Below, piece after piece: positions 1,701 to 63,050 of a DNA stretch of 64,000 bases. How positions within the stretch are numbered: the stretch's first letter is position 1; every line of letters starts with the position of its first letter. A program made the translations under genes and the position numbers. This DNA is from Eledone cirrhosa (taxonomy: Eukaryota): the NCBI GenBank assembly GCA_964016885.1, contig OZ024740.1:84568001-84632000 (forward strand), read 5' to 3'. The notes under the pieces are model-generated. The model saw nothing but the letters and a program-made list of their open reading frames with translations. It was not told where the DNA came from and searched no databases.

Positions 1701-1701
<1 letters not shown>

Positions 1702-2476: not shown

Positions 2477-3132
2477 CTAAACGACTACTTATTATTTCAC
2501 CACCAATACCACCACCACTGCCACGATGAAAACTCTGGTCAAATCGACTCAAATTTATACCCCAACTACAACACCATCACTACAGTAATACGACCACTTC
2601 ACCACCACTACTAAACGACTACAGATTACTATTTCACCACCAATAACACCACCACTACCACGATGAAAACTCTGGTCAAATCGACTCAAATTTATACCCC
2701 AACTACAACACCATCACTACAGTAATACGACCACACCACCACCACTACTAAACGACTACAGATTACTATTTCACCACCAATAACACCACCACTACCACGA
2801 TGAAAACTCTGGTCAAATCGACTCAAATTTATACCCCAACTACAACACCATCACTACAGTAATACAACCACACCACCACCACCACTGCCTCAGTATCGCT
2901 ACCGCCGCTATTCTCTCCCACTGCCTCCTACTGGTTGCTGCTAGCACAGCACCACCACCACATTGTAGAATTCCTACTAAAAGAGGACACCATCACTACA
3001 GTAATACGACCACATCACCACCACCACTGCCTCAGTATCGCTACCGCCGCTGTTCTCTCTCCCACTGCCTCCTGCTGGTTGCTGCTAGCACAGCACCGCC
3101 ACCACATTGTAGAATTCCTACTAAAAAAGAGG
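2477..3132 (+). repeat. Composite tandem repeat: about 3 x 135-137 bp units followed by 2 x about 140 bp units
   Basis: CTAAACGACTAC recurs at 2477, 2611 and 2748. ACCACTGCCTCAGTATCGCTACC recurs at about 2881 and 3024. Confidence 0.85.
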
Positions 3133-3399
3133 AAGGCATCAAAATATATAGATAGACTCAAAAGAAAAAACAAAGATCAAAATCAAAGCAGCACAGCAAC
3201 AACAACAAAACAAATAAACAAAAAAAAAAAAACAACGTAAAGAAAATAAGAATGAAGAGAGAAACAAACGGACGGACAGAGAAAGGAAGGGAAAAACTAA
3301 GTCAGACATTCGAACACTACATTACAATGAAACTTATGCTTATTCATTTTTGGGGCTTTTTCTGCCTGTTTGTTTGTTTGTTTATTTGTGTTCGTCTAC

Positions 3400-4705: not shown

Positions 4706-4725
4706 TAATAAATAATAATAAATAA

Positions 4726-7713: not shown

Positions 7714-8522
7714 GCTTTCTTTATTAACCACAAGGGTTTACACAAATTAAGACATTAAGGAGAATACAGGACAATACAGGACGGTACAAATGGGCATTTC
7801 TGCGTGTAAAAATACAAAAACAGAGAATGTAACAGAAAAGAAACAATGAAAAATGTCCCAATAGAGGGGGAGACTTCCGAGGGCCATAGTGAAGAAAGCC
7901 CATTAAAAAAGCCACGGTGACCCTGACCACCAGGGCAAGTGCCTTCTCCCAGTTTTCCACCTTCAATTCACAGGCACATACTCAGAGTAGGCCCATTCAC
8001 TCGGGCCATTATTGCCTCTCTCACCCATCTTTCAACAAAATGCTGGGAAGGCAGCACTTCCCTCTTCACCCTGATTTTCCTTTTCAGGTAAAGCCTGAAG
8101 AAGTTAATGAGGGCGTCACCGAAGAGGAAAGTACGCACCTTCAACCCTTTCAGACGTGTCGACCATATGACCTCTTTTACCATGGCCACCGGGCAGATAA
8201 AAACTTCCTGCCCTTCCCGGCCAAAGGAAGGCGGCAAGGCAATCCTCACGATGGACTCAGCTGATAGCAGGATCCGTCCTACACGTGACAGCACGTGCTC
8301 GACATAAACCCACAAGCCATCAATGCTCAGATACTGGACGAGTGCGTGCAGGACGGTTTCGTGACCCTGCGCGCATCTCGGACAGGGTGGCTGACGACAC
8401 TTCCATGACTATAGAGTTTATCCCGAACTGGCAAAGCTCCTCGGTAGCACTGTCAGGCCAGGAATTTCTGGAAGTTGTCCATGGGCCTCGGCTCCAAAGT
8501 TCTCCCGAAAAGAGTGGCTAGT
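7714..8522 (-). mobile_element. Tx1 subfamily B, 5'-truncated 3' fragment
   Basis: ORF 7968-8315 closely matches the ORF2 C-terminus at 49907-50374. The 3' UTR ends AACCCTTGTGGTTAATAAAGAAAGC(ATT)n. Confidence 0.9.
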
Positions 8523-8716
8523 TGATAATAACGGTTTCTACTTTTGGCACAAGGCCAGCAATTACCCAGTACATTACTGGTACTTTATTTTATCGACCCC
8601 GTAAGGATGAAAGGCAAAGTTAACAGCAGTGGAATTTGAACTCAGAATGTAAAGGGCCATAACTCTATACTACAAAGCAGGGTGTCGGACACTACCGGTA
8701 CTGCCAATCCACTGCC
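8523..8716 (-). mobile_element. tRNA-derived SINE (ATT-tailed family)
   Basis: A-box-like TGGCAGTACCGG, B-box GAGTTCAAATTC, body GGGGTCGATAAAATAAAGTACCAGT, and 3' end GGCCTTGTGCCAAAAGTAGAAACCGTTATT. Confidence 0.85.
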
Positions 8717-11700: not shown

Positions 11701-12758
11701 ACAGCAGTAGAGGTCTTCTCCCCCTTGTACATTTCAGCAGTTGAGGGAAGAAGGCTCGCAAATGGGCTGTTTCTCCGCAAACGAAACAATGCGGCCTTTT
11801 TCCCTCAGTCATTATATGTACCACCGTCCCGTTCTGGAGACGGATGTGGTCAGGGATTGTTTTTACATTCTCGGGCCTGATCTGGAGAAGTATCTCCAGG
11901 TCAACCCAGGACCACTCCTCCCTGGCAGTCCTTGTAACCGCTATCTAGAGGGTATCCGTCCCCTCTACAATCACACATCCCATGAGCCACCACATATCAA
12001 GTCCTGTTGGAATCCTGGGAATGCGGACACGAGCCGTTCGTTTTCCCATGTGGAAGGGGTACATAATAACCTTGCTGGTTTTGCAAGGGGTCATTGCATG
12101 TTTCATAACAAGGGCTTCTGACTTAAACAGCACCGAAATGGTGCCGTATTGTCTTCCCCTCGCTATATATTCGGTCTCATCCCTGATGCACCACAGCACG
12201 GCTTCAATATCTGCCTGGGAAATTAAAGCCGCCCTTTTTGTTTCTGCTGAGATGCATCTAAAATGCACCGTTCTATGCTCCACTGCATCAATGGCTTCTA
12301 TCGTGAGAGTTAAGTTGGCCCAGGTTTGCTCTTGTTTGATGAGTTTTCGGGCCTGTCTTTTGGTTGTCGCTGTTAATACCGTGGTTGGTGTTGTCATTTT
12401 TTTTGTTAAGTTAGTGTTCTCACCGCTGCTGTTGTTTCTGTTGTTGATCATGTTGGTTGTGGTGGTGTATAAGGTATAAATTTTTGTGTTCGCCGTATCA
12501 CTCCTCTCAATATTTAAGCCGCTGTCACACGACAGCAGACTTACCGTTGGTTTTTTTTTCGATAATTTTTGTTAAATACACAAAGTACAAATAATTGGGC
12601 CAAAAGGCCCAAATGTTATAGCGTCTCCCCTTCACAGAGCAAAGACGGAAGTCTAACGAACCTTTTCACAAAATGCAACAATTATTACAAATGAAAATAA
12701 ACTGAAAATTTACCATTTTTACGGAGCTCCAAAAAGACGTCTACACTGTCTGACAGCC
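8739..12758 (-). mobile_element. Tx1 subfamily C, both ends present but with large internal deletions in EN and RT
   Basis: ORF1 pieces include the knuckle CFVCGETAHLRAF. ORF2 starts MAILRVESLIVRCLG at 10891, and the C-terminal HPLRGGLGMPW...NFQKSLAWQCY is present. The 5' end is (ATT)n|GGCTGTC and the 3' end runs into (ATT)n at 8720-8738. Confidence 0.88.
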
Positions 12759-12953
12759 AATAATAATTGTTTCTACGTTAGGCACAAGGCCAACATTTTT
12801 TTTTTTTTTTAATGGAGAGGAAAGTCGATTAAATCGACCCCAGTGCATTACAGCTGCTTTATTTAATCGACCCCGTAAGGATGAAAGACAAAGCTAACTT
12901 CGGCGGGATTTGAACTCAGAACGTAAAGGGACGTAACTATATGCCGCAAAGCA
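12759..12953 (-). mobile_element. tRNA-derived SINE (ATT-tailed family), 5'-truncated
   Basis: Same body and 3' end as 8523-8716. Its ATT tail directly precedes the Tx1-C 5' end. Confidence 0.85.
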
Positions 12954-13513
12954 TACAAGTGATTGACGAGGGTGAATAAACTTTAAAAGCGCATACGATA
13001 ATGTTCCACATTCCTGGATCCGTAAATGTTTCCAAATATACGGAGATTACATTGCAAGTTTACTAGAAATAGTATGTAAACCTTACATGAAGATATTTTA
13101 ATTATTACAGCTATTAATAGAAATACAATGAAAGTATTAGAAAGAAAACCGGGACGAAATGGGTTAGTATGTACAAAATTTGCTATTTGAAAAGCTTCTT
13201 GTCTAAGTTATTCAAGTGAAATATTATGCATCAAAAAGAAATCAATATATCATACAAACACATGAAATCGGATACCATATATTTTAAGTCATAATCATAA
13301 ACTGAAATGAAAAAAGGCAATTGAAATATTATATCTTTCGTTTCCTGTAGTACAATGAGATGTACTCCCATTGGTGAAGTGCCTGTGAGCGACTTGGATG
13401 TAAATGACGTCAATTAGATACGAAATAGACACATAAACAACATCCATTTAAGAAAAGAAAATACATCAACATATATACCGATATGTAAAACAATATTTAT
13501 AATGTTTATTTTT

Positions 13514-21850: not shown

Positions 21851-29439
<7,589 letters not shown>

Positions 29440-30370: not shown

Positions 30371-30702
30371 TGCCTTTCATCCTTACGAGGTCGATAAAAT
30401 AAAGTACCAGTAATACACTGGGGTCGATTTAATCGACTTTCCCTTTCCCAAAAAATTGTTGGCCTTGTGCCTAAAGTAAAAACAATTATTATTATCATTA
30501 TTATTATGACAGTGGATTGGCAGTATCGGTAGAGGGTCAGATGCCATGCTTTGACGCATAGAGTTACAGCCCTTGCCATTCTGAGTTCAAATCCCGCCGA
30601 GGTTAACTTTGCCTCGCATCCTTACGGGGTCGATAAAATAAAGTACCAGTAATGCACTGGGTAATTGCTGGCCTTGTGCCAGAAGTAGAAATAATTATTA
30701 TT
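30371..30702 (+). mobile_element. Two head-to-tail ATT-tailed SINEs (3' fragment 30371-30507, near-full copy 30508-30702)
   Basis: A box TGGCAGTATCGG and B box GAGTTCAAATCC in the second copy. Each copy ends GGCCTTGTGCC...(ATT)n. Confidence 0.87.
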
Positions 30703-33700
30703 GGTCTGTTCTGACGCCTTTTTGCTCGCTCCCAGTAAGTCGCTTTATTTACCTGTTATAATTATTTGTTGTTTAATTTTTCTTGTTGTGTAAGGGGTAT
30801 AAGCCCTTGGACTTTGCCCTGTGAAGGGGAAAGTATAATATTTGGACTTTTTGGCCCAAATATTTGAACAATATTTGAACATTTTACTTTTAAAAATAAA
30901 AAAAAACCTGGCTGGACCACGCCCCCCAGCAAAATGTCTGCTGTCGTGTGACAACGGCGTAAAAGTTGAGAGGAGTGTTACAGAAATTGATACAACAAAC
31001 ACCACCACAAACAACGTGAACAAAGACAACAACACTGAGAACACTAATTTTTAAAAAATTACCATACCAACTACAACAATAATAGCGTCAACCAAAATAC
31101 AGACAACAGAAAAAACTGACAACAAATGCCACAACGATATTAACACCACTCACAAGAAAATAAACAACGACAACACCAAGAGCAACAATACAAATTGCAC
31201 TGAAAACAACAAAAACGGTGGCACCAAAAATACAACAAACTACAACAGTGATAACAGCAACAACAGCAACAACACCGTTCGTAGCACTAGCAACAGCAAC
31301 AACACCAACAACAAGACCAGTAGCGGCAGCAATAATGGTGCCGCTGAAAAAGAGGCCACTTCTTTCGCAGGTGTGGCCCGAAATATAGAGACAGTGCTAG
31401 TAACTGAGGAGGAGATGGCAGTCACAAGAGCCATGGTGACAAGAAATGACAATAGAGTTTCCCTACAACCTCCACCCGATTTCTTCAAAGACCAGCAGTT
31501 CCGCACGGTGACTTACCGCACCGTAAGCAAAATGTCACATCGGGTGGAGAGAGCCACGGAGGCTCAAATCCAAAAGGCCTTGGGGTGCGTCTGGGCGCGC
31601 AAAACCCACATCACCCGAGGCAAAAAGTACGCCACAGTAGACGTACTTTTCGTCACCCAAAGAGGCGAAATCTCACTCTTTGGAAACCCTAAAGAGGGAG
31701 GAGATAGTCTTGGTGCTCTCCTACTGCGGGCAGAAAATTGTGAGGGTCAAAGTGACCCAGGTCCCGCCCGACGTACCCATACCTTGGCTGTCCGCGTCTT
31801 TACTGGCTGGAATCGAGGAAAAGACCACCATACTGCAAATACAGAGAATGGGAAGAGAGAACTGGTCAGGAATAGGCATGCAAATGCTAATCCAGACTGT
31901 CCAGGGGTACATCGAGGCCATCCCAGACATCATAACCTCGAAGAAGGGCTCCAACTCCCTATAAACATGGAAGGAAGGCGCCGAAAGTGCTATCTCTGTG
32001 GGCAGAAGGGTCACCTCAGGGCCTTCTGCCCGCAGAAGACAGCCAAGAAGAGCCCCCCCCCCCCGCTGCTTCCGACGCCTGATCCGCTACTACCAAGAGC
32101 AGTGCAGGCAACAGAGGCAGAAGACCCTTCCATGGTGAATAGGAGGGCAACGTCCGTGGCACCCTTACCAAGGCCACGGACAACTAAAGCAGCGGCAGCA
32201 GTGGCGGCAACACCAAGAGTCGCAGTAGTCACACCGGCGGCAAAATCGCCGGAGCGGGCTCCATTACCACCACCAACAGCAGTGGATCTCATACCCCTCC
32301 CAGACGCCACGGAATATGACATGGAGTATAAGGCGGGAGGGAAGTGGCAAACGGTCTGCCACAAAAAAAACAAAAGAGGAAAAACCCCTTAGCTTCACCC
32401 TCCAAAAGTGAAGGCAGACAAAGAGGGGTAAAGGCTGCAAGGAGACTTGCAGCAACACCACCACCATCACCATCACAAGCATTTCTTCCAACAACAACCA
32501 CACCACCACCAGCATTACCAAAATCACTAACATCGCAAACACAACAAAACACACGCACCCAACAGCAACAACAAGAAAACAGCAACAAAATCATCCCTCC
32601 CCCAAAAAGTATACAGCCATAAACATGGCAAATAAAGAACTCATACAACATATAAAGCAGCACACAGACATCACAGAAAAAAACTACTACACTACACCAA
32701 CACCAAGAACTCTCCCGACAAACATAAACATCATTGAAATCAAAATAGAACAGTACAAACTTTTAAAACAAAAATTACCCAACGTAGTTGGAGACTTCAG
32801 AGGGCCGGTTACCAAGAGGATATACACTGACATCCTCTTGGAAACACCCATGACCAGCCAAAGGGACGGTTCTACTGTCCCTTCACCACACGATCAAGGT
32901 AAGTGATCCTTTCTCACTTGCCCCGTTTCTCATCCAACATGGCCGTACTTAGAATAGTCAGTATAAATGTACGTGGCCTGGGGTCATCTAGGAAGCAGAG
33001 TCACCTGCTCAACGACCTCAGGTCACTAAACATAGATGTGGTGGCCATTAGCGAGACCAGAATCTCCGAAGCACGAGCCTTCGCACCAATCTTCGGCGGC
33101 TACGATGTATACGCATCTCCCAGCCGTCTAGGATTGGGGGAAGGGGTGGTAAAGCTTTTTCAGAGAGGCTTGGACCCAGAAGCTAAGTCTGTGGTGCTGG
33201 ACGTGACCGGCAGCGAAGGCAATGTTTTCAGGCTAGTAGCCGTCTACGCCCCAACAGGGGCAGGACGGCCAGATTTCTTCAGACGTCTAGAGACCTTTCT
33301 TGGAACGTCCCGCTCTTTAGTGTTAGTGGCCGACTGGAACGGTATCTTAGATACACGCTGGGATTATGTGGGGCTAGTAGACAGGACAGGAGGTGTAAAA
33401 GCCTCAACAACCTGCTCAGACGTGTTGAACTGTCTGACAGGTATAGACTGGATTATTCGAATCTGCCAATGTGGACATGGGCAAACCACATCGGGTCATC
33501 CATATCGTATTTAGGAGTATTCTGTAGAGAAACAGATAAAGCTAGTGTAAGTTGTCCACAATTTAAAGTAGTCGACTACTCGGACCACATATTTGTGATC
33601 TGTGAAGTTCACTTAAATGGACTCCATAGGCAAGGGCCTGGCTATTGGAAGCTGAACGCGTCGTTCCCGGCGCGCAAAGCTTACAGAGACCGGATTAGAG

Positions 33701-36444
33701 AATTAGTTAAGCGTGCGTTGACGGGTGCGATCGTCAACAACAGGTGGTGGTTTACCCTGAAAAGGGCTATTAGAGTAGAATCGATAAGGTTTAGCAAAGG
33801 AGTAGTGATAGAGGAAAATAGAGTAGAGGGAGAGTTAGTTAGAAAGCTAGAAGCGGGGTATAGGACAGGCATCGCAACCGACGTGCTTGCGGCGAGATTG
33901 GCACTCAATTCTTCAACGCAAAGCATGAAGGCTGCATTGTCAGAGCTAGAGCGCGTGCTCTAAGACACGAGGGGACGAAAGCCGTTCAATGGGCCCGGTT
34001 GGTAGAGGCGCGATGTGGCAACAAGTCCACAATTCGGTCTTTGCCTGATCAAAACGGGCGCATGTTGCTCGAACCCGAGCAGATGTGTGCGGCTTTTCAA
34101 CAGCACTTTGCTCAATTGTTCGGGAGCGGCGGCGGGCCGGATCGGAGTATGGACTTCGGTGCATACCTCGACGGACTGCCGCGGCTCTCGGCGGCCGCAG
34201 CGCAGTGCTGTGAAAAGCCGATAACAGATGAAATACGGGAAGCGATGTCTAACTGCACGAGGGGTAAATCGCCAGGTTTGGATGGTCTACCCTACGAGCT
34301 TTATGCGTATATGTCAGACTTGTTCGGCGACCTCTTGGCAGATGTCTACTGCAACTGGCAGTAAAACGGGAGCATTCCCAGTTTTGTGAGCCGGGGAGCG
34401 ATGGCGCTGCTGATAAAAGACCCGAACAAGGGGGACGTTATAGACAACTTTAGGCCCATAACTCTGCTAAACGCAGGGTTTAAGATTTTGGCCAATGTGT
34501 TAGCAAAGAGAATAGGCGCTTGTCGTCGGTGATCTGGTGGGAGAGGCGCAGACATGCGCCATTCCGGACAGATCAATCCACGACAACCTCCAGCTCATGC
34601 GATACATCATAGAGAGGGTGGTTAAGGAACCTGGCACGGGTGGGACCCTGATCAACTTGGTCAATCTAAAGCATCTGATAGGGTCGACCATCAGTACCTG
34701 GCTGCGCTCTGTCCGCCAGGGTTTCCCCCTCTCGTCCTTCTTGTATGTACTGGCCCTCGAGCCGTTACTTCACAAATTGGAGACGATGAGGGGGGTCCCA
34801 CGCGAACTGGGATGCGGGAGATCCGTATCAGCTTACCCGACGACGTCACCGTGGTGGTGTCGAGCACCAAACACGTCCAGATGGTCGACACTGCTCTCAA
34901 GGAATACGAAACGGTGACAGGACAAAGATAAAACAGGAAAAGTCGGTGGGCTTGCAACTCGGCACCTGGAGAGGCAAGTCAATGCCGTCCGACAGCGTCG
35001 TGGGGCGCTGGACGGAAGGACCGGTTAAATTGCTCGGGGTCTGGTTCGGTCCGGACCTCCAGATGGAGAAAACCTGGAGCGAGATGACGAGCAGGGTAGC
35101 CTCTCACCCAGAAATGGGTCGAGAGGAGGCTGTCTCTTTAAGGACTGGCGGAGGTGGCGAATGCCTACATAGCGTCCGTCATCTGCTACCGCCTGACCGT
35201 CATACCTTGCCCCGCCCAACTCTGACCAAAAGGGAGCGCCTTCTCTTCCGCTTTTTGTGGAAGCGACGTTCTCCCATGGTCAGACGATCCATTTGCTGTC
35301 ACCACCCGTTGCGTGGAGGACTAGGCATGCCGTAGCTGATGATGCGCAAACATGCGCTGAGGCTGCGAATCTCTGGTGTTTCCTTGACGGTGAATAGGTG
35401 TGGTCGCCGTTTGCCAGACGCGCTTTTCCCCAGCTCGTCTCCTTGACGGAGCTGCAGTCCTGGATCAGGAAAGACTGAGGGATAGTGCTTGGAAGCTGGA
35501 ATGTCTCCATGCGCTCACCGCCCTCTACCAGCTGGACACTAGTATCGCTGGAACATCCACCTCGGCGTTCTATAGAGGGCTAGTGGAGGGAAAGAGTGAC
35601 GACGTTCTCGGGGAGACCCTGGGCGTCGAAGATGATCAGCTGTTCGCTCTCTTCAAGAGAACTTTCAGACCGGGGCCTATGGACAACTTCCAGAAATCCC
35701 TGGCCTGGCAGTGCTACCGGGGAGCGTTGCCGGTTCGGGATAAGCTCTACAGGCACGGAGGTGCTGTCAGACGAGCCTGTCCGAGATGCGCGCAGAGCGA
35801 CGAAACCGTCTTTCACGCACTCGTTCTGTGCCCGAGGATTGCTGACTTGTGGAGCTATGTCGAACAGCTGCTGTCGTGTGTAGGACGGATCCGGTTATCG
35901 ACTGAGTCCATTGTGCAGATAGTCCCGCTATCCTCCTTTAAAGGGGAGGAAGGGCAGGCAGTTTTCATCTTCCTGGTGGCCATGGCGAAAGAGATTATGT
36001 GGTGGACAAGGTTGAAAGGGTTGAAGACGGACACTTTCCTTTCTCAAGTTTCACTTGAAGAGTAAAATCAGGGTGGAGAGGCAAGTGCTGTCTTCTAGTA
36101 AGTTTGTTGAAAGGTGGGTGAAAGTGGTGAGTCTGGTCCGGTTAAACAGGCCCGCTCTGAGTATGCGCTTGTAGACTGAGGAGTGGGAAAACAGAGAGGG
36201 CGTTTGCCCTGGTGGGTCAGGTTGGCCGTAGTCTTGTTTGTGTGGTTTTCACCGCGAGTGACCCTCGCAGGTTTCCCCCTTTTGGGGGAATTTTTGTTGT
36301 TTGAATTTTTTTTTATTTCTATCCCGATTTCTATCTTGTTATAACCTATTTACACGACCAAAACTCACTTTGTATCGTCCTGTACTGTTCTGTGCCGTCT
36401 GTAATGTTTTTTTCGTGTCAACCCTTGTGGCCAATAAAGAAACC
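30703..36444 (+). mobile_element. Tx1 subfamily A, full-length but decayed (ORF1 knuckle; ORF2 with APE, RT and C-terminal zinc finger)
   Basis: CYLCGQKGHLRAFC, ORF2 ATG at 32939 (SINVRGL, SETRI, VYAP, DWN, SDH, GYWKLN), KSPGLDGLPYE, RQG.PLS and CPRC...H...C. The 5' end is (ATT)|GG and the tail is (ATT)n at 36445-36510. Confidence 0.92.
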
Positions 36445-36510
<66 letters not shown>

Positions 36511-39500
36511 GGCGACCTACGTAGTAAATCGTATCATCGTGAGCTCCGCAAAGGTTTGTTATTTTCAGTTGTTTAAAATTGCCATTTATGGAAAATTATT
36601 ATTGTTAACTGTATATAAGTGCACATACATTGATTTCTGAAAAGGACACTTTAAAATATTGGGGCCTTGAGCCCAAAATTTAAACTTTTTATAATTATCA
36701 AACAAAAATTTTTCTTTGAAAGATAATGGATAACTCAGAGTCACTCCTTCCTCACAATCCAACACCTCACACCGACACCACCATTGTAAATATTGGTACG
36801 TTTGCCAACACTGGAGTTGTAAGCAGTAGCAATATTTGAAATTTGTCTCAGGCAGACGTTCATTTTCCGCCATTACCAATGACTGCAGGTGTTAAAGCCG
36901 CCACCACCACCACCGCGACAACCACCACCCCCACCACCACAACAGAACGACAACAGAAACAAACAAAAAATAATTTAACTCGTGATATCGAAATGAATTC
37001 AACCAAAATGAACTCTTCCACACCGAACACCACTGACGACACCACCACCACAACTGACACTAAAATTAACAATAGCAAAAATAACGATAACAACAACAGC
37101 AACAATGAAATTAAGAAAACTACCCTGAGTTTTGCCAGAGTAGCAAAAACGTGCGAAGCGATCCAGGTAACTCAGGAGGAATTAGAAGAAGCCAAAGGAA
37201 TGGTAAAGAAAGCTTCGGGACATGTGTGGGCAAAGAAAACCCACATCAGACGTGGGCAGAAGTATGGAACTGTGGACGTGTTCTTTGAAACACCACATGA
37301 GGCCAGAGAACACTCCATGGCCCCATTAAGAAGTGACGACTTCACACTCATCCCAAGCTATTGTGGCCAGAGACTTGTGAAGATCAGGGTGACCCACGTT
37401 CCACCGGCCATCGAAATTCCTTGGCTAATGGCTGCCGTCCTCGCCGGCATCGAGGCCAACACCAAAATAATAGAAATAGCAAAAGAAAAGCAGGAGAACT
37501 GGTCCGGATCTGGGATGGAGCTCCTGATCCAAGCGGACCAAAAAAGCATTGAGGAGATCCCAGAGCTAATAGACTCACTGATGGCAGCCACCTCAACTTA
37601 ATCGTCGAGGGCAGAAGACCTAGGTGTGTCGTTTGTGGTGAAGGAACCCACCTAAGGGCTTTCTGCCCTTAGGCTAAAAGGTTGAGGCCACCTCTCTTAC
37701 CCCCCCCCCCCAGTGACTCAACCATCAACACCACCAGCAGCATAAATGGCAGCAAACAACTGTAGCACCAACTGTAACAGAAACAACCCCAGCAACAGTA
37801 GCAAAACCAACACCACCACCACCCAACGCCCCAGAACTAGCACCAGCGCCTACACCATCCACCACGCCACAACCAAAACCAACGCCTGTGGAGGATTTTC
37901 CACTCCCCGGCTTATCTCAACTGGAGAGAGATTGTGACGACGAGGAGTGGGAAACGGTATCAGGAAAGAAGAAAAAAAGTAACCAAAAAAGAAAAAATCC
38001 TCTTCCCTCCCCTCCAAAAACAAAATACAGAGGGAAACAAATAAATTATCAAACAAGAAAGTTAAGACAGATATGCCACCATCCACACCAGCATCACCAA
38101 CCCCATCACCACAAACACCAACACCATCTTCCTGGACCCAGAAGGTAAGTTAGTGGTGCTAGAACGTGACCAGCGGAGACGGGCAAGCTTTCAGGCTAGT
38201 GGCCGTCTATGCCCCGACAGGAGCAGGGCAGCGTGATTTCTCCCGGCGTCTGGAGACCTTTCTTGTGGGCGACTGAAACGGGATCTTAGATGCACGCTGG
38301 GACTGTGTGGGATTAGCGGATAGGGGAGGAGGGTGCAAGAGCCTCACCAACCTGCTCTGGCGTTTTGAACTGTCTGACAGGTACCGATTGTATTTCCCGA
38401 ATGTGCCAATGTGGACTTGGACAAATCGCATAGGGTCATCCAGATCATATCTAGATAGAGTAATTTGTAGAGAAATAGATAGGTCTAGCATAGGCTGTCC
38501 ATAATATAGTCAGCTGTCCATAATATAGTCAGCTACACGGACCACAAATTCGTGATCTGTGTGCTTGACTTAGATAGGCTTCATAGACGAGGACCCGGCT
38601 ACTGGAAGCTAAACGCGTCCTTACCAGCGCGCAAGGCCTACAGAGACCGGATTAGCGAACTAGTTAAGTGGGCGTTGACGGGGGCCATCGTCAACAACAA
38701 GTGGTGGTTTGCTCTGAAAAGAGCAATTAGAATAGAGTCCATTAGGTTTAGTAAGGCTTTAGCAATAGAGAAAAATAGAGCAGAGGGAGAATTAGTTAGA
38801 AAACTAGACGAGGCGCTTAGCAAAGACATCGCGACCGACGTACTTGCGGCGAAATTGGCCCTTGACCAATTCTTCAATGCAAAGCACGAAGGCTGCGTTG
38901 TCAGAGCTAGGGTGCGTACTCTCAGACACGAGGGAATGAAAGCCGTTCAATGGGCCCGAGTGGCGGAGGCGCGTCGTGGCAACAAAGCCACGTACCGGTC
39001 TTTGGTGGACCACGACGGGCGCATGCTACTCGATCCCGGGCAAATGTGTGAAGCTTTTAAGCGACACTTCGCTCAGTTGTTCGGGGGCAGCGGCGAGCCG
39101 GATCGAGGGATGGATTTTAGTGTCTAACTCGACGGTATGCCGCAGCTCTCGGCCACTGAGGCGGAGTGTTGCGAAAAGCCGATAACAACCGCTGAAGTAC
39201 GGGAGGCAATGACTGGCTGCACAAGGGGTAAATCGCCTGGTTTAAATGGTCTGCCCTATGAACTTTACGTACAAATGACAGACTTGTTCGGAGGCCTCTT
39301 GGCGGACGTCTACTGCAACTGGCAACAGAAGGGGAGAATTCCCAGCTCTGTGAGCCGAGGAGCGGTGGCGCTGCTGAGAAAGGATCCGAACAAGGGGGAT
39401 AACATAGATAATTTTAGGCCCATAACTCTGCTAAACACAGAGTTCAAGAATTTGGCCAAGGTGCTAGCAAAGAGGTTGGCGCTTGTCGTTGGTGGTCTAG

Positions 39501-41523
39501 TGGGAGAGGCGCAGATATGCGCCATTACCGACAGATCCACGACAACCTCCACCTCATGCGATACATCGTAGAGACGGTAGCTAGGGAACCTGGCACGGCT
39601 GGGTCCTTGATCAATTTAGATCAGTCGAAAGCTTTCGATAGGGTCGACCATCGTTCCTAGCGGCAGTCCTGAGGGCGGCTGGCTTTGGGCCCGTCTTCAG
39701 AGGCTGGATCGCTGCCATGCATAGCGACATCTGCTCTGTGGTGAGAGTGAACGGTAACCTTTCGGAACCGTTCAACATCATTCGCTCGGTCCGCCAAGGA
39801 TGTCCCCTCTCGTCCCTCTTGTACGTATTGACTCTCGAGCCATTACTGCACAAACTAGAGACGTTGAAGGGCGTCCGGCGCGAACTAGGATGCGGAAGAT
39901 CCGTGTCAGCATATGCGGACGATGTCGCCGTAGTGGTGTCGAACGCCAAACACATCGAGGTGATCGGCACTACACTAAGAGAATACGAAGCGGTGACAGG
40001 AGCAATGATCAACCAGGAAAAGTCAGTGGGCCTGCAGCTCGGCACCTGGAGAGGCAGGTCCATGCCGTCCAACAGCGTCGTCGGGCGCTGGACGGACGGA
40101 CCGGTTAAATTGCTAGGGGTCTGGTTCGGTCCGGACCTCCAGACGGACAAAAACTGGGACGAGGGGACGAGCAGGGTGGCTTCTCTCACCCAGAAATGGA
40201 CGGAAAGGAAGCTATCCCTGAAAGGTCGAGCGGAGGTGGCTAACGCGTACATCGCGTCTGTCATCTGCTACCGCCTGACCGTCGTACCTTGTCCTAAGCC
40301 CCGCCTGACTGCGCTGGAGCGTTTGCTCTTTCGCTTTTTGTGGAAGGGACGCGCTCCGATGGTCAGGTGGTCTATCTGTTGTCAACACCCGCTATGTGGA
40401 GGGCTGGGCATGCCATGGCTGATGATGCGCAGACACGCGCTCAGGCTACGACATCTCCACCTCTACCTCGACGGTGATCAGGTGTGGTCGCCGTTTGCTA
40501 GACACGTCTTTTCCAGCTCGTCTCCTTGACGGAGCTGCAGTCCTGGGTCAAGCGAAGACCGAGAGGGAGCGCTTGGAGACTGAAATGTCTTCAGACGCTC
40601 ACAACCCTCGACCAATCGGGCAATGTGATCGGTGGAAACTCCACCTCGGCGTTCTGTAGAGGATTAGTGGAGGGGAAGAGCGACAACGTACTTGGGGAAA
40701 TTCTAGGCGTCGACGAAAATCAACTAGCCAATCTCTTCGGAAGAACTTTCGGGCCAGGGCCTATGGACAACTTCCAGAAATCCCTGGCCTGGCAGTGCTA
40801 CCGAGGAGCCTTGCCAGTTCGGGATAAACTCTACAGGCATGGAGGTGCCGTCAGCCGGGCATGTCCGAGATGCGCGCAGGGCGACGAAACCGTCCTGCAC
40901 GCACTCGTCCAGTGTCCGAGAATTGCTGACTTGTGGGTTTATGTCGAACACCTGCTGTCGCGTGTAGGACGGATCCGGCTATCAGCTGAGTCCATCGTGA
41001 GGATTGCCCCGCCCTCTTCCTTTAGCCTGGAAGGGAAGGCAGTTTTTATCTCTCTGGTGGCCATGGCGAAAGAGATAGTATGGTGGACACGTTTGAAAGG
41101 GCTTAAGACGAGCACTTACCTCTTCGTTGATGCCCTGATTGACTTTTTCAAATTTCATTTGAAAAGGAAAATCAGAGTAAAGAGGGAAGTGCTCTCTTCC
41201 CAGCATTTTGTTGAAAGATGGGTGAGAGAAGCAAGAATGGACCGAGTGAATGGGCTTACTCTGAGTATGTGTCTTTAAATTAAAATTGGAAAACTGGGAG
41301 AGGGCACTTGCCTTGGTGGTCAGGGTCACTGTGGCCTTTTAATGGGCTTTCTCCACAAATGTCCCTCGGAAGTTTCCCCCCTATTGGGGAATTTTTCATT
41401 GTTATTTTTATTACATCCTCTGTTTTTTTTACACGCAGAAAGGCCCATTCGTACCGTCCTGTATTGTCCTGTACTGTCCTTAATGTCTACTTTATGTAAA
41501 CCCATGTGGTTAATAAAGAAAGC
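36511..41523 (+). mobile_element. Tx1 subfamily B, both ends present, with internal deletions
   Basis: Collinear with 44900-50623. RQGCPLS and YADD are present. Deletions lie at about 37210 and 38128, and the (ATT)n tail is at 41524-41535. Confidence 0.92.
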
Positions 41524-41535
41524 ATTATTATTATT

Positions 41536-43247
41536 CTTTGAGTCTCAGTCATTGATGTTAGTTAACTGGAAAGTTTGTTGAAATGAATATCAAGCCACTA
41601 CCTGCAGCCTCAGATATTCAGGACGTATCGGAGGGTTCTTGCTGTTCCCAGCAAGCATGCCTTTTGAAGCGTTCCAAAAAGCGTGAAGGGGCCAATTTTC
41701 TTTAACCATCCCTGGAAACTTTTTGAGATAGTCCCTAGTGCGCCTATGACAATCGGGATCACTTTGACTTCATGGCAGTTCCAAATCCTTTTTACCTCCC
41801 ACTTTATGGTATTGGTTAATTTTCTCCCTCTCCTTCTCTTGCACTCTCGTGTCGAATGGGCAGGCCACATCCACAATCAGGCACGATCTTTTTTCTTTGT
41901 CCACAACCACCAGGTCAGGTCTATTGTGTTCCAGTTTCTTGTCCGTCTGTATCCTAAAATCCCACAGCACCTTCACCTGATCGTTTTCTATCACCGACTC
42001 TGGCTTATGCTCATACCACTTCTCAGAATGTGGTAAATTGTTTACTTTGCATAGGTGCCAGTGGTTCACCCTGCCCATCACATCATGTCTCCAGCCCTTA
42101 TAGTGAGTCTGGGCTAGGTGTTTACACTCGGATACAATGTGAGCCACAGTCTCCTCTCTCCACAGATCCTGCACAGTGGGCTAGCCTCCTCCTTGTAAAT
42201 ATGGTGTTTCACCCACTTCGTTTTGAGGGCCTGCTCCTACGCAGCCATTAACATTCCTTCTGTAGCCTTTTTAAGGTCTCCTCTTTTCAACCAGTTCCAT
42301 GTCTGTGGATCTCTAAATTCAGATTTCTCAAAGAAGGTACTATGAAGGGATTTTTCCTGAAGGCTGCTCTTTCTCCTTGATGTTATTTCCTCCTTGGACA
42401 TCCCCTGGTCTATTGTCCCCTCCTTCAGTACAGTTCTGAGCATTGGCTCCTTACTATCAGTCACGTATTTGTGTAGGTTGTTTTTCTCCATCTTAACACA
42501 GTCCTCTATGCTGATAAGACCTCTTCCACCTTCAGATCTCCTTAAGTAGAGTCTATCGACATCACTCCTCTTGTGGAACATATTGTAGATAGTCAATAGC
42601 TTCCTAGTCTTCCTATCCATTTCTTTTTGTTCAGCAACATTCCATCTCAGAATTCCCGCACTGTACCTAATAATAGACACAGCTCGGGAATTTACTGCAC
42701 TTATGGCATTCCGACTGTTCAGATGTGACTTTAATACGCTCCTTACTCTACGAATGTATTCAGTTCTTATCAATTCCTTCATTTTTTTGTTCTTGATGTC
42801 ATCAGCCTCCAGAACACCCAAATACATGTATCGTTCTTCAGAGTCAATTTCCTTTATCATCTCACCTGTTGGTACCTGGATTCCGTTACTTCTGCTCAAC
42901 TTACCCCTCTTCATCACAATGACTCCACACTTACTAATACCAAATTGCATACATATACCATTGCTGAAAATACGGACAGTGTCAACAAGCACATCCAACT
43001 CCTTCTCACTCTTCCCGAAGAGCTTAAGATCGTCCATGAAGAGGAGGTGATTGATGGTAAGCCCTCCCTTTCCCAACCTGTATCCTGCTCTCACTTTTCG
43101 CAGTACACTGGTCAGGGGCATCAGGGCAAGGACAAACAACAGAGGGGACAGACAATCTCCCTGGAAGATACCTCTCTTGATCTTCACGCTTCCCAAGGAT
43201 TCTCCAGTTGATGTTAACTCTGTTTCCCAGGACTTCATACTTTTGCA
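41536..43247 (-). mobile_element. R4/Dong-clade retrotransposon, 5'-truncated (RT C-half plus RLE), with a (TAA)n tail
   Basis: Motifs GIFQGDCLSPLLF, FMDD, CRIC...H...C, RHD and NRPDLV...IVDVACP. The 3' end joins (TAA)n at 41524-41535. Confidence 0.88.
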
Positions 43248-44872
43248 CCAGACACATCCAGATGCTCGGCACCACTCTCAAGGAAAACGAAACGGTGACA
43301 GGAGCAAAGATAAACCAGGAAAAGTCGGTGGGCTTGCAGCTAGGCACCTGGAGAGGCAAGTCCATGCCGTCCAACAGCGTCGTGGGGCGTTGGACGGACG
43401 GACAGGTTAAATTGCTCGGGGTCTTGTTCAGACCGGACCTCCAGATGGAGAAAAACTTGAACGAGGTGACGAGCAGGGTGGCCTCCCTCACCCAGAAATG
43501 GGCTGAGAGGAAGCTGTCCCTGAAAGGCCGGGCGGAAGTGGAGAATGCGTACATCGCATCCGTCATCTGCTACCGCCTCACCGTCGTCCCTTGCTCCAGC
43601 CCAACTCTCACCAAAATGGAGCGCCTCCTCTTCCGATTTTTGTGGAAGGGACGCGCTCCCATGGTCAGACGATCCATCTGCTGTCAACACTCGTTTCGTG
43701 GAGGACTGGGCATGCCATGGCTGATGATGCGCAAACTTGCGCTGAGGCTGCGACATCTCTGGTGCTTCCTTGATGGTGAACGGGTGTGGTCGCCGTTCGC
43801 CAGGCATTTTCCCACAGCTCGTCTCCTTGACGGAGCTGCAGTCCTGAGTCAGAAAAAGACCGAGGGATAGCGCTTGGAAACTGGAATGTCTCCAGGCGCT
43901 CACTGCCCTCTCCCAGTTGGGCTCCAGTATCGGTGGAACATCCACCTCGGCGTTCTATAGAGGACTAGTGGAGGGGAAGAGCGACGATGTTCTCGGAGAG
44001 ATCCTGGGCGTCGAAGAAGATCAGCTGCTTGCTCTCTTCCGGAGAACTTTCAGCCCAGGGCCTATGGATAACTTCCAAAAATCTCTGGCCTGGCAGTGCT
44101 ACCGGGGAGCGCTGCCGGTTCGAGATAAGCTCTACAGGTACGGAAGTGCCGTCAGCCGAGCCTGTCCGAGATGCGCGCATAGCGACGAAACCGTTGTGCA
44201 CGCACTCGTTCAGTGCCCGAGCATTGCTGACTTGTGGAGCTATGTCGAACAGTTGCTGTCACGTGTGGGACTGATCCGGTTGTCGACTGAGTCCATTGTG
44301 CAGATGGTCTCGCCGTCTTCCTTTGAGGAGGAAGGGCAGGCGGTTTTCATCTGCCTGGTGGCCATGGCGAAAGAGATTGTGTGGTGGACAAGGTTAAAAG
44401 GATTAAAGACAAACACTTTCCTCTTCGGCGAATCCCTGATTAACTTTTTCAAGTTTCACTTGAAGAGGAAAATCAGGGTGGAGAGGCAAGTACTGCTTTC
44501 TAGCAAGTTTGTTGAAAGGTGGGTGAATGTAGCGAGAATGGTCCGAGTGAACGGGACCACTCTGAATATACGTCTGTAGTTTGAGAGATGGAAAAATTGA
44601 GAGAGGGCGCTTGCCCTGGTAGTCAGGGTGGCCGTGGTCTTTTGTGTGGTTTTCGCCACGAGTAACCCTCGGAGGGTTCCCCCCTATTGGGGAATTTTTC
44701 ATTGTTTCAATTTTCATTTTATTGTTTATATATATATATATATGTTTTATGTCTTTTTTCTTTTCTTATATAAATAATAAAAATATTTACACGCACAAAA
44801 CTCACATCATACCGTCCTGTTCCGTCTGTGATGTTTTTCTTGATGTCAGCCCTTGTGGCCAATAAAGAAATC
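43245..44872 (+). mobile_element. Tx1 subfamily A-like, 5'-truncated 3' part
   Basis: KINQEKSVGL...CPRC. The 3' UTR resembles 36180-36444 and the (ATT)n tail is at 44873-44899. Confidence 0.9.
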
Positions 44873-45108
44873 ATTATTATTATTATTATTATTATTATTG
44901 GCGACCTACGTAGTAAATCGTATCATCGTGAGCTCCGCAAAGGTTTGTTATTTCCGTTTGTTAAAAATTGTCATTTATGGAAAATTTTTATTGTTAACTA
45001 TATATAAGCGCACATACATTGTTTTCCGAAAAGGACACCCAAAAAGATTGGGGCCTTGTGCCCAAAATTTAAACTTTTATGATTATCAAAACATTTATTT
45101 GAAAAAAA

Positions 45109-47100
45109 ATGGCTAATTCACCACTGCACCAAGCAGCTGAAAGCCTTTCTCACAAATTAACACCTCACACCGACACCACCATTGTAAATGATTATACGTC
45201 TTCCAACACAAGCAATTTAAGCACTAGCAATATTTTAAATTTGTCTCAGGCAGACATTCATTTCCCGCCATTACCAATGACTGCAGGTGTTAAAGCTGCC
45301 GCCACCACCACCACCGCGACAACCACCACCCCCACCACCACCGCGACAACAGAAACAAAAGGAAAAAATAAATGAACTCGTGATGTCGAAATATTTTCAA
45401 CCAAAATGGACTCTCCCAAACCGACTTTCAATGACGTCACCACCACCACAACTGAAACTAAAATTAATAATAACAAAAATAACGATAGCAACAACAACAA
45501 CAATGACATTAAAAAAACCACCCTGAGTTTTGCCAGAGTAGCAAAACAGTTCGAAGCATTTACGGTAACTCAGGAGGATTTAGAAAATGCCAAACAAATG
45601 GTAAAGAAAGATGGGTACAGGGTCAGCCTTACCCCCCACCCACCCCCACCCCCCACCTAATAAAATGGACCATCGGCGCCTATGCACTGTGTTGTATCGA
45701 ACAATAAATGTAAAATCGCGCCGAGTGGAACGGGCATCCGAGTCCCAAATCCAAAAAGCTTTGGGACATGTGTGGGCAAGAAAAACCCACATCAGACGTG
45801 GGCAGAAGTATGGAACCGTGGACGTGTTCTTTGAAACACCAGAGGAGGCTAGAGAACACTCCATGGCACCATTAAGAAGTGACGACTTCACACTCGTCCC
45901 AAGCTATTGTGGCCAGAGACTCGTAAAGATCAGGGTGACCCACGTTCCACCGGCCATCGAAATTCCTTGGCTAATAGCGGCCGTCCTCGCCGGCATCGAA
46001 GCCAACACAAAGATAATAGCAATAGCAAAAGAAAAGCAGGAGAACTGGTCCGGATCTGGGATGGAGCTCCTGATCCAAGCGGACCAAAAAAGCCTTGAGG
46101 AGATCCCAGAGGTAATAGACCTCACTGACGGCAGCCACCTCACCGTAATTGTCGAGGGCAGAAGGCCTAGGTGTGTCGTTTGTGGTGAAGGAACCCACCT
46201 AAGGGTTTTCTGCCCTCAGGCTAAAAGGTTGAGGCCACCTCTCCTACCCACCCCAGTGACACAACCATCAACACCATCAGTAGCAGAGATGGCAGCAACA
46301 ACTGTAGCAGCAACAACAGAAGCAACTATAACAGCAACAACCCCAGCAACAGTAGCAAAACCAACACCACCACCACCAGCAAAACCAACACCCAACGCGC
46401 CAGAACTAGCACCAGCGCCTACACCATCCACCACGCCACAACCAAAACTAACGCCTGTGGAGGATTTTCCACTCCCCGGCCTATCACAACTGGAGACAGA
46501 TTGTGACGACGAGGAATGGGAAACGGTATCAGGAAAAAAAAAAAGAAACCAAAAAAGAAAAAATTCTCTTCCTTCCCCCTCCAAAAACAAAATACAGAGG
46601 GAAACAAATAAATTAACAAACGAAAAATTAGGACAGATATGCCACCATCCACACCAGCATCACCAACCCCATCAACCCAAACACCAACACCATCACCATC
46701 ATTAACCCCAAGACCACCATCACCTACACCACAAAAGTCACCAAAATGCGAAACAGAAACAAACCCACAACAAACGCAAACAAAACAAAACAACCAAAAC
46801 GATACACACTACACAGCATTAAATTTGAACAACAAGCAATTATTACACTACATCCAACACAACACCAGCATCACAGAAAAAGACTACACAACAACCCCAA
46901 AATTCACACCACCTCCACACATACAAATCACTCGCATCACACAGAAAACGTACATGACACTAAAACAAAAATTCCCCAAAGACATCGTAGACTTCTGACA
47001 AGCACTCTCCAGGAGAATTTATAAGGACATCCTTCCTGAGGAGGCCACAAGCAGTGAAAAGGATGGAAAAACCGTCCTTCCCCTACGAGAAGTAAGGTAA
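45109..47100 (+). pseudogene. Tx1 ORF1 (gag-like, CCHC zinc knuckle, T/N- and P/T-rich linkers), frameshifted
   Basis: ORF pieces 45109-45375, 45406-45660, 45611-46705 and 46639-46998. CVVCGEGTHLRVFC and WETVSGKKKR are present. Confidence 0.8.
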
Positions 47101-47134
47101 GTGGTCTTTCCCATCTTTTCCACTCCTTTTCAAC

Positions 47135-50100
47135 ATGACCTCACTCAGAATAGGCAGCATAAATGCACGTGGCTTGGGGTCGTCATAGAAGCAGGGCCAC
47201 CTGCTCAACGACCTCACGTCACTAAACATAGATGTAGTTGCCATCAGCGAGACCAGAATCTCCGAAGCACGGGCCTTCGCACCGATCTTCGGCGGCTACG
47301 ATGTGAACGCATCTCCCAGCCCTCCGGGATCGGGGGGAGGAGTTGCTGTGCTTTTTCGGAGAGGTTTGGATCTTGCCATACGGGCCATCTTCCTGGACCC
47401 AGAAGGTAAGTTGGAGGTGCTGGGCGTGACCAGCGGAGAAGGGCAAGCGTTCAGGTTAGTGGCCGTCTATGCCCCGACAGGAGCAGGGCGGCCTGATTTC
47501 TTCCGGCGTCTGGAGACCTTACTTGGAACGGCCCGCTCTTTAGTGTTAGTGGGCGACTGGAACGGGATCTTAGATGCACGCTGGGATTGTGTGGGATTAG
47601 TGGATAGGGAAGGAGGGTGCAAGAGTCTCACCAACCTGCTCTGGCGTTTTGAACTGTCTGACAGGTACCGAATGGATTTCCCGAATGTACCAATGTGGAC
47701 TTGGACAAATCGCATAGGGTCATCCAGATCATATCTAGATAGAGTATTTTGTATGGAAATAGATAGGTCTAGCATAGGCTGTCCACAATTCAAGATAGTC
47801 AGCTACACGGACCACAAATTCGTGATCTGTGTGCTTGACTTAGATAGGCTTCATAGACGAGGACCCGGCTACTGGAAGCTAAACGCGTCCTTATAGGCGC
47901 CTAAGTTAAAATCGCTACAAGCGACCGACGTACTTGCGGCGAAATTGGCCCTTGACCAATTCTTCAATGCAAAGCACGAAGGCTGCGTTGTCAGAGCTAA
48001 GGTGTGTGCTCTCAGACACGAGGGGATGAAAGCCGTTCAATGGGCCAGAGTGGCGGAGGCGCGTCGTGGCAATAAAGCCACGTACCGGTCTTTGGTGGAC
48101 CACGACGGGCGCATGCTACTCGATCCCGGGCAAATGTGTGAAGCTTTTCAGCGACACTTCGCTCAACTGTTCGGGGGCAGTGGTGGGCCGGATCGAGGGA
48201 TGGACTTTAGTGTCTACGTCGACGGACTGCCGTGGCTTTCGGCCACTGAGGCGGAGTGTTGCGAAAAGCCGATAACAACCGCTGAAGTACGGGAGGCAAT
48301 GACTGGCTGCACAAGGGGTAAATCGCCTGGTTTAGATGGTCTGCCCTATGAACTTTACGTACAAATGCCAGACTTGTTCGGAGGCCTATTGGCGGACGTC
48401 TACTGCAACTGGCAACAGAACGGGAGAATTCCCAGCTCTGTGAGCCGAGGAGCGGTGGCGCTGCTGAGAAAGGATCCGAACAAGGGGGATAACATAGATA
48501 ATTTTAGGCCCATTACTCTGCTAAACACAGAGTTCAAGATTTTGGCCAAGGTGCTATCAAAGAGGTTGGCGCTTGTCGTTGGTCGTCTGGTGGGAGAGGC
48601 ACAGACATGCGCCATTCCCGACAGATCCATCCACGACGACCTCCACCTCATGCGATACATCGCAGAGAGGGTAGCTAGGGAACCTGGCACGGGTGGGTCT
48701 TTGATCAATTTAGATCAGTCGAAAGCCTTCGATAGGATCGACCATCGTTACCTAGCGGCAGTCCTGAGGGCGGCTGGCTTTGGGCCCGTCTTCAGAGGCT
48801 GGATCGCTGCCATGCACAGCGACATCTGCTCTGTAGTGAGAGTGAACGGTCACCTTTCGGAACCGTTCAACATCATGCGCTCGGTCCGCCAAGGATGTCC
48901 CCTCTCGTCCCTATTGTACGTATTGACTCTCGAGCCATTACTGCACAAACTGGAGACGTTGAGGGGGGTCCCGCGCGAACTAGGATGCGGAAGATCCGTG
49001 TCAGCATATGCCGACGATGTCACCGTAGTGGTGTCGAACGCCAAACACATCGAAGCGATCGACACTACACTAAAAGAATACGAAGCGGTGACAGGAGCAA
49101 TGATCAACCAGGAAAAGTCAGTGGGCCTGCAGCTCGGCACCTGGAAAGGCAGGTCCATGCCGTCCAACAGCGTCGTCGGGCGCTGGACGGACGGACCGGT
49201 TAAATTGCTAGGGGTCTGGTTCGGTCCAGACCTCCAGACGGACAAAAACTGGGACGAGGTGACGAGCAGGGTGGCTTCTCTCACCCAGAAATGGGCCGAG
49301 AGGAAGCTATCCCTGAAAGGTCGAACGGAGGTGGCTAACGCGTACATCGCGTCCGTCATCTACTACCGCCTGACCGTCGTACCTTGGCCTGAGCCCCGCC
49401 TGACTGCGCTGGAGCGTTTGCTCTTTCGCTTCTTGTGGAAGGGACGCGCTCCGATGGTCAGGCGGTCCATCTGCTGTCAACACTCGCTACGTGGAGGGCT
49501 GGGCATGCCGTGGCTGATGATGCGCAGACACGCGCTCAGGCTACGACATCTCCACCTCTTCCTCGACGGTGATCAGGTGTGGTCGCCGTTTGCTAGACAC
49601 GTTTTTCCCCAGCTCGTCTCCTTGACGGAGCTGCAGTCCTGGGTCAAGCGAAGACCGAGAGGGAGCGCTTGGAGACTGGAATGTCTTCAGGCGCTCACAG
49701 TCCTCGAACAATCGGGCAATGTGATTGGTGGAAACTCCACCTTGGCGTTCTATAGGGGATTAGTGGAGGGTAAGAGCGACGACGTACTTGGAGAAACTCT
49801 AGGCGTCGACGAAAATCAACTAGCCAATCTCTTCGGAAGGACTTTCGGGCCGGGGCCTATGGACAACTTCCAGAAATCCCTGGCCTAGCAGTGCTACCGG
49901 GGAGCTTTGCCAGTTCGGGATAAACTCTACAGGCATGGAGGTGCCGTCAGCCGGGCATGTCCGAGATGCGCACAGGGCGACGAAACCGTCCTGCACGCAC
50001 TCGTCCAGTGTCCGAGCATTGCTGACTTGTGGGTTTATGTCGAACACCTGCTGTCACGTGTAGGACGGATCCGGCTATCAGCTGAGTCCATCGTGAGGAT

Positions 50101-50374
50101 TGCTCTTCCCTCTTCCTTTAGCCGGGAAGGGCAGGAAGTTTTTATCTGTCTGGTGGCCATGGCGAAAGAGATAGTATGGTGGACACGTTTGAAAGGGCTG
50201 AAGACGAGCACTTACCTCTTCGGTGATGCCCTGATTAACTTTTTCAAATTTCATTTGAAAAGGAAAATCAGGGTAGAGAGGGAAGTGCTCTCCTCCCAGC
50301 ATTTTGTTGAAAGATGGGTGAGAGAAGCAAGTATGGCCCGAATGAATGGGCCTTCTCTGAGTATGTGTCTGTAA
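47135..50374 (+). pseudogene. Tx1 ORF2 (AP endonuclease, reverse transcriptase, C-terminal zinc finger), with nonsense codons and a deletion
   Basis: SINARGL, GGGVAVL, VYAP, GDWN, YLDR, TDH, NFRPITLLN, DQSKAFD, RQGCPLS, YADD and CPRC...H...C. Confidence 0.9.
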
Positions 50375-50622
50375 ATTAAAGGTGGAAAACTGGGAGAGGG
50401 CACTTGCCCTGGTGGTCAGGGCCACTGTGGTCTTTTAATGGGCTTTCTCCACAAATGTCCCCCGGAAGTCTCCCCCCTATTGGGGAATTTTTCTTTGTTA
50501 TTTTATTTCATCCTCTGTTTTTTTTACACGCAGAAATGCCCATTTGTACCGTCCTGTATTGTCCTGTACTGTCCTTAATGTCTACTTTATGTAAACCCTT
50601 GTGGTTAATAAAGAAAACAAAA

Positions 50623-50668
<46 letters not shown>

Positions 50669-50681
50669 TGTATATGTGTGC

Positions 50682-50725
<44 letters not shown>

Positions 50726-62089: not shown

Positions 62090-62150
<61 letters not shown>

Positions 62151-62209
62151 GTGTGTGTGTGCATACATACACATACACATACAGACACACGCGCGCGCAC
62201 ACACTCACT

Positions 62210-63043: not shown

Positions 63044-63050
<7 letters not shown>
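62602..63050. repeat. Near-perfect spacerless palindrome, arms about 225 bp
   Basis: Centred at about 62826 (GGTATAGAG T CTCTATGCC). The arms match with few mismatches. Confidence 0.93.

Follow-up and report, generated by a model that had tools for sequence, protein, structure and literature searches.

LINEs of the octopod Eledone cirrhosa that carry an APE endonuclease and likely belong to the Tx1 clade appear to insert in one orientation into pre-existing (ATT)n microsatellites, by a predicted nick in the AAT strand followed by pairing of 3' AUU units of the element RNA. We give this reading as a whole a probability of roughly 70%; that the elements target (ATT)n in earnest we regard as close to certain. 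The target is strand- and phase-specific, is present before insertion and is duplicated by it, and the elements lack poly(A) and end in a conserved stem-loop. Strand-specific (ATT)n targeting, with each insertion regenerating a target for the next, had been proposed from a sequence-only reading of one stretch of 64,000 nucleotides (the window) of this 3.0 Gb genome, and it is supported by genome-wide junction counts, by 5'-truncated copies and by interrupted target-site duplications.

Trains of elements separated by ATT runs

The main train of the window (30371-50668) is made up of the following features.

30371..30508, +, 5'-truncated SINE with an ATT-rich tail
30509..30702, +, SINE, target of element A; 3' stem-loop TGGC-CTTGT-GCCA at 30669-30681, then GAAATA and (ATT)3
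30703..36444, +, family A LINE, full length (5,742 bp); ORF1 and ORF2 degraded; ~90% identity to another A copy
36445..36510, +, (ATT)22 array, spacer between A and B
36511..41523, +, family B LINE, 5,013 bp, with internal deletions
41524..41535, +, (ATT)4, 3' junction common to B (+) and a Dong-like element (-)
41536..43244, -, 3' part of a Dong/R4-like LINE ending in (AAT)n; RT, CCHC and PD-(D/E)xK-type endonuclease
43245..44872, +, 3' part of a family A' LINE; its left edge is an ATT-free fusion to the Dong-like element
44873..44899, +, (ATT)9 array, spacer between A' and B
44900..50623, +, family B LINE, near full length; ~200 bp internal deletion; 96-97% identity to another B copy
47189-50374, +, ORF2 of this B copy (APE-RT-zf-RVT), with two stops
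50624..50668, +, (ATT)15 array, 3' of the train

A second group of elements lies near the start of the window.

1..1634, -, family B 5' part, running off the window; preceded by an array at 1635-1700
1701..7689, +, Dong/R4-like LINE, full length, (AAT)n on its flanks; opposite in orientation to the two adjoining B copies
7714..8526, -, 5'-truncated family B copy, starting directly after a SINE's GTTATT tail
8527..8716, -, SINE inserted after the family C tail
8739..12758, -, family C LINE, degraded, inserted after a SINE tail
12759..12954, -, SINE upstream of family C

On re-reading, each of the five 5' ends (1634-, 12758-, 30703+, 36511+, 44900+) begins with GG directly after ATTATT, and the six 3' ends (7714-, 8739-, 36444, 41523, 44872, 50623) run into (ATT)n a few bases past AATAAA without poly(A), both as originally described. 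The GG start holds for these five ends and does not extend to the lineage, in which several loci start with GAATG and a sister family described below with TTTCTG. Sequences starting GAATGC(T/C)ATGG after ATT runs and continuing into an A-like ORF1 were seen at L031:6300-8001, L067, L078, L185, L187 and L224 and are likely a further ATT family.

The earlier map was accurate for the Tx1-like elements and their junctions, but it overlooked the opposite-strand Dong-like element at 1701-7689(+) between two B copies and the reversed Dong/R4-like element at 41536-43244, which splits B from A'. At 43244, where that element meets A', ATT is missing and the break falls inside both elements, which is most simply a later deletion.

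Neighbours in a train are different families, 75-90% alike, so that we read trains as serial insertions. A segmental duplication or an assembly artefact, which the sequence-only reading had raised against itself, might be suspected in a repeat-rich region where no contig of four public runs spans the train; given that the train members are divergent families and that thousands of sites in differing surroundings show the same kinds of junction, we attach next to no probability to it. Of 87 sampled 5' ends, 20 lie downstream of another Tx1-like tail, 24 of a SINE, 17 of a Dong-like element and 20 of other DNA, with 6 unscored. Head-to-tail trains are common and not obligatory.

ATT junctions across the genome

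The 21-nt start of family B occurs exactly 2,308 times in the whole genome, and 2,209 of these occurrences (95.7%) directly follow ATTATT. In 400 kb of background, sampled as 40 evenly spaced 10-kb genomic pieces, ATTATT precedes 0.106% of positions, which excludes chance. Family-B starts without ATTATT directly upstream are a minority. For sequence-specific Tx1 families Kojima asks for more than 20% of flanks of one type; here a single type makes up the above 95.7% of B starts, and the targets are ATT and TATC rather than the (TC)n or (TTC)n of Kibi and Koshi.

At loci outside the window, taken as the best 30 of 40 matches and thus leaning toward the copies most like the query, ATTATT directly precedes the start in 28/29 B, 25/29 A and 23/29 C loci. 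Most of the misses differ by a single base in the array or in the start, and two C loci have no 5' end. At the other end, the shared 3' motif is followed by ATT at 8,936 exact ends genome-wide and by a non-A base at 1,703, of which 1,316 are the TATCTA of the sister family; these genome-wide 3' counts cover ATT ends and non-A ends. Among 120 local 3' ends, 103 enter at least two ATT units at once and none has poly(A).

The repeat is present before insertion

Copies that have lost their 5' ends bear directly on the origin of the repeat. Among 30 B loci chosen by their 3' end, 8 begin inside the locus: 6 directly after at least four ATT units, one at an internal deletion and one fused to an A' end. 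Truncated B copies therefore start directly after ATT runs in 6/7 cases. For A', with four internal rearrangements set aside, 6 of 8 truncated copies start after ATT runs, one nearly does and one is fused.

Target-site duplications are legible where the array is interrupted by other bases. Interrupted arrays duplicated on both sides were seen by eye at L212 (17 bp), L136 (17 bp) and L153 (18 bp), and also at L287 (21 bp), L290 (17 bp), L258 (14 bp), L265 (13 bp) and L283 (14 bp). Duplications of 13-21 bp are thus present in eight informative ATT copies, and every one begins at the element's last unique base, in a fixed phase. They are absent in six other resolved copies (L257, L261, L270, L276, L280, L289) of a set of 40 that were picked out of 143 for an interrupted 3' array; there the interruption has no 5'-side duplicate, either because the duplication was shorter or because the site mutated afterwards. 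Of these 40, about 10 partial copies have no ATT at their apparent 5' boundary, the 5' end of about 11 is not traceable, and many tails were changed by later Dong or SINE insertions. An attempt to reconstruct empty sites from SINE duplications gave no information, since most upstream SINEs lay in ATT arrays or the LINE was rearranged. Contigs of four public runs over 41400-53000 yielded no joint readable as an empty allele; the joints belong to other copies.

Truncated copies start after ATT, and arrays that contain interruptions occur in duplicate; the repeat is therefore target DNA that predates the insertion rather than a tail or an artefact. It might instead be that the element itself supplies (ATT)n as its tail and 5' leader, and that read-through or duplication builds the trains, the targets being self-made; the 20/87 5' ends that follow another element's tail would fit. 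This account is contradicted by the interrupted duplications, which carry unique host bases, and it sits poorly with the truncated copies that follow ATT too, with upstream flanks that differ (20/87 being unrelated DNA) and with train neighbours from different families. We consider it very unlikely. Arrays are often longer than the duplication, and some array growth at or after insertion is therefore likely.

Domains and lineage

The window elements match Pfam APE (PF03372), RT (PF00078) and zf-RVT. They have the two-ORF architecture of the L1 group (L1/Tx1), with an N-terminal APE, RT and a C-terminal CCHC/zf-RVT in ORF2. An ORF1 with a zinc knuckle is a feature of the Tx1 clade, and A and B both carry one (CxxCxxxxHxxxxC; the zf-CCHC match, E=0.001, is under the Pfam cut-off). 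Among solved structures, human L1 ORF2p is the best match to homolog P0009, at 235 bits vs 61 for R2, and ORF2 has its nearest named relatives in Argonauta hians (69%) and a cuttlefish (46%). In a quick RT tree with no named Tx1 or L1 sequence among its rows, the cephalopod clade (100) falls with turtle and teleost sequences (SH-aLRT 92) and is separate from a group of mostly ~1,270-aa proteins, somewhat nearer human L1. The ATT and TATC families are likely Tx1, as judged with a tree that holds no named Tx1 reference. The APE hairpin loop of the turtle protein P0267 resembles the Tx1L graft in 2v0r. Metagenome scans for flanks of relatives outside the Eledone cirrhosa genome found nothing; family-B-like pieces are present in public sequencing runs of three other organisms, and no RNA data set was among the matches listed, which is evidence in neither direction.

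A sister family at TATC repeats

A family with ~72% identity to B in ORF2 DNA ends in TATC instead of ATT (L291-L310, e.g. L306:1181-7000). All 20 of 20 copies run into TATC at the 3' end, as do the 1,316 exact ends counted genome-wide, and TATC-type sequence precedes the 5' end of 5/5 full-length and 11/15 truncated copies. Duplications, judged by eye, are ~10-16 bp. The ORF2 frame of L306 is intact (1,172 codons). Several divergent TATC relatives with trains of their own were also seen.

Between the ATT and TATC groups the RT is 73-81% identical and the APE ~60%, with catalytic motifs unchanged. RT trees unite the TATC families in a single clade (99/95), whose sister group is the C-like ATT families, at 86/76 in a careful tree of 21 rows and at SH-aLRT 99 in a quick tree of 77 rows. 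Holding the ATT families and the Argonauta row to one group gives a tree that is rejected at p-AU 0.006; that group was named after the first tree was seen. The TATC lineage is thus likely nested within the ATT families, and a single switch from ATT to TATC would be the simplest reading.

The betaB6-betaB5 hairpin loop of the APE reads N[R/C]IG in ATT families vs N[R/H]SG in TATC-type rows, and two further APE surface stretches also differ. According to the available text of PMC1950540, this loop affects the target selectivity of L1-EN, loop flexibility may count more than loop sequence, and Tx1L-EN is highly sequence-specific in vitro. The loop difference would represent one evolutionary event and is only a lead on target choice.

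A 3' stem-loop in common with an abundant SINE

Every family ends in a 3-4 bp stem with a CTTGT-type loop (CUUGU in RNA): AACC/GGTT, GGCC/GGCC or TGCC/GGCA, and TGGC/GCCA in the SINE, whose 3' end also reads GAAAC-ATTAT. Over 4 bp and ten related rows, with the structure drawn from those same rows, 3/4 pairs show changes in both partners, and pairing holds in 87.5% of cells; none of 500 shuffles reaches the covariation score, and slid controls are lower. On this small stem and these ten rows, LINEs and SINE have in common a 3' end with a conserved stem-loop, which is one mark of a stringent SINE/LINE pair.

The SINE is abundant (62 matches in 400 kb). Among 23 near-full SINEs from random samples, 15 are flanked on both sides by identical repeats of 9-20 bp, most of which begin ATTA; one or two of the 15 may be chance. 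(ATT)3 stands on either side in 0/23, and insertion is at short ATTA(T) sites. The SINEs do stack in the ATT trains of the window, as described earlier, but the SINE is not ATT-specific. A search for another LINE with the SINE's exact tail led nowhere: of 149 such tails in 1.77 Mb, 146 have the SINE upstream and the other three look degenerate or truncated. The SINE is plausibly a passenger of the ATT/TATC LINE lineage, a candidate partner with looser targeting. In L263, near 6970-7000, a SINE body is joined to a family-B 3' end exactly at the common CCTTGTG motif, as would follow if the template had been switched, or the two had recombined, at the stem-loop.

A model of insertion, and how much of it is pairing

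In the mechanism that we favor, ORF2p would bind its own RNA at the conserved 3' stem-loop with its CUUGU-type loop. The APE would nick the AAT strand, plausibly at a T/A step as in L1, and the freed 3' end would anneal to the few read-through AUU units just past AAUAAA, so that reverse transcription would start inside any poly(A). A second nick 9-21 nt on would produce the duplication and leave ATT on both sides. Later LINE copies, SINEs and opposite-strand Dong-like elements could then reuse the ATT, with slippage lengthening the array, and one branch likely switched to (TATC)n. The nick, annealing and second nick are modeled on established TPRT and on the L1/Tx1L endonuclease work in the available text of PMC1950540.

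A loosely specific APE could also suffice if only paired nicks were completed, in which case targeting would be real and set almost wholly by RNA-DNA pairing, and the switch from ATT to TATC would have needed no enzyme change. The SINE speaks for such a scheme, since with the same stem-loop and a short ATTAT end it inserts at ATTA(T) with 9-20 bp duplications; its looser targeting suggests that RNA pairing adds to array specificity, and should it be moved by the same enzyme, nicking by itself could not account for that specificity. Some TATC targets have fewer than two repeat units (L293, L295, L308), and the APE of the two groups keeps its catalytic motifs at ~60% identity. Yet the phase of the duplications is fixed, each starting at the very last unique base, the hairpin-loop residue follows the target, Tx1L-EN is highly specific in vitro (PMC1950540, available text), and the SINE's partner LINE is a candidate only. 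We find pairing as almost the sole determinant rather unlikely, and prefer an AAT-strand nick acting together with AUU pairing.

Dong-like elements in the same arrays

Dong-like elements, with a restriction-like endonuclease, use the same ATT arrays on the opposite strand. Their 5' ends follow AAT runs in 18/20 cases and their 3' ends enter AAT in 73/74. The translations of 1701-7689 and 41536-43244 contain a C-terminal CCHC and PD-(D/E)xK motif, and the target is (TAA)n; the label Dong/R4-like is given from motif and target rather than from a tree. These RLE motifs rule out Tx1 or RTE for the opposite-strand elements. In the 5' region of the full-length element, 137-144 bp tandem repeats lie at 2476-3126 of the window.

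Relation to known systems

Microsatellite-targeting Tx1 elements are known, and the targeting seen here is well supported; its main value is the likely in-genome target switch together with the LINE/SINE stem-loop. The Tx1 targets given in the available text of PMC4494074 and PMC3812793 are (TC)n for Kibi, (TTC)n for Koshi and (TTCC)n/(TTTC)n for crocodilian families. All are APE-RT LINEs of the L1/Tx1 group with microsatellite-specific insertion, as here; they use pyrimidine tracts, whereas the present families use (ATT)n or (TATC)n, in a cephalopod host and in thousands of copies. Unlike Kibi and Koshi, they also include a close sister pair with different targets inside one genome.

Dong (R4 clade) is described at (TAA)n in Bombyx, Anopheles and Biomphalaria (PMC3812793; PMC3774820, available text). 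It uses the same microsatellite, and Dong-like elements occur here in the same arrays; they have a restriction-like endonuclease and AAT on their own strand, whereas the ATT families have an APE and ATT. Tx1L of Xenopus and the crocodilian SINEU/Tx1-Mar target DNA transposons (PMC1950540; PMC4494074, in the portions available). They resemble the present case as sequence-specific Tx1 systems with target-site duplication, tandem copies by sequential insertion and a proposed SINE passenger, but SINEU is tied to Tx1-Mar by a common target, and the SINE here by a 3' stem-loop without strict targeting. The closest likeness for that stem-loop, with its compensatory changes, is in UnaL2 and the stringent pairs of monocot L1 (PMC3747384), where UnaL2 also ends in a repeat instead of poly(A). 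The L1-clade pairs in the available text of that source come from plants and an alga, with no animal Tx1, whereas the present one is animal and likely Tx1.

In Octopus vulgaris, L1-Tx1 and Dong-R4 are reported to have been recently active (13 families, 421 insertions; PMC13282606). In its available text the word 'target' occurs 0 times, and the likeness is by description, not by sequence. Across the available text of the literature covered (including PMC4640811, PMC4758252, PMC3531059 and PMC8967140) we found no ATT- or TATC-targeting Tx1 and no cephalopod case; Repbase/Dfam, Kojima and Fujiwara 2004 and the targets of the Kojima 2015 tree lie outside that scope, and Repbase/Dfam or Kojima and Fujiwara 2004 may already list such families.

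How APE-type LINEs choose a microsatellite is described as not well understood (PMC3812793, available text). The ATT and TATC sister families offer a natural pair for how elements likely choose and switch targets, and since the groups sit on different repeats and one TATC ORF2 is intact, exchanging domains and 3' ends between them can directly tell the part of nicking from that of RNA pairing. The finding explains why LINEs, SINEs and microsatellites cluster locally in a 3 Gb octopod genome, and it gives the abundant SINE a candidate LINE partner; ATT/TATC microsatellite markers in octopods may often be element junctions. Somewhat doubtful, but conceivable, is a larger picture in which an octopod Tx1 lineage, poly(A)-less and stem-loop-dependent, would have passed from (ATT)n to (TATC)n by few changes (loop Ile to Ser plus new read-through repeats), would drive the dominant octopod SINE as a stringent pair, and would share its microsatellite with opposite-strand Dong in a self-renewing microsatellite-transposon ecosystem.

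Other elements in the window

An Rfam scan of 29500-51000 gave sub-threshold miRNA matches only, and ARAGORN found no tRNA. At 13650-16000 (-) lies the 3' part of another LINE, whose C-terminus looks RLE-like to the eye and which stops near an (ATAC)/(CA)-type repeat, not AAT. Helitron-like ORFs at 22927-28574 (-) match PIF1 helicase and, weakly, Rep and Ulp1/C48 peptidase in Pfam, and two long open frames at 59880-62208 (-), of 563 and 223 codons, have no Pfam match. Inverted repeats or palindromes at 30205-30365, 54474-55104 and 62530-63117 are possibly MITEs or non-autonomous DNA transposons. At 55997-56421 (-) a tandem SINE pair encloses a duplicated non-microsatellite target, ATTATTATTCTAGTC, with the same stacking logic as that of the LINEs.
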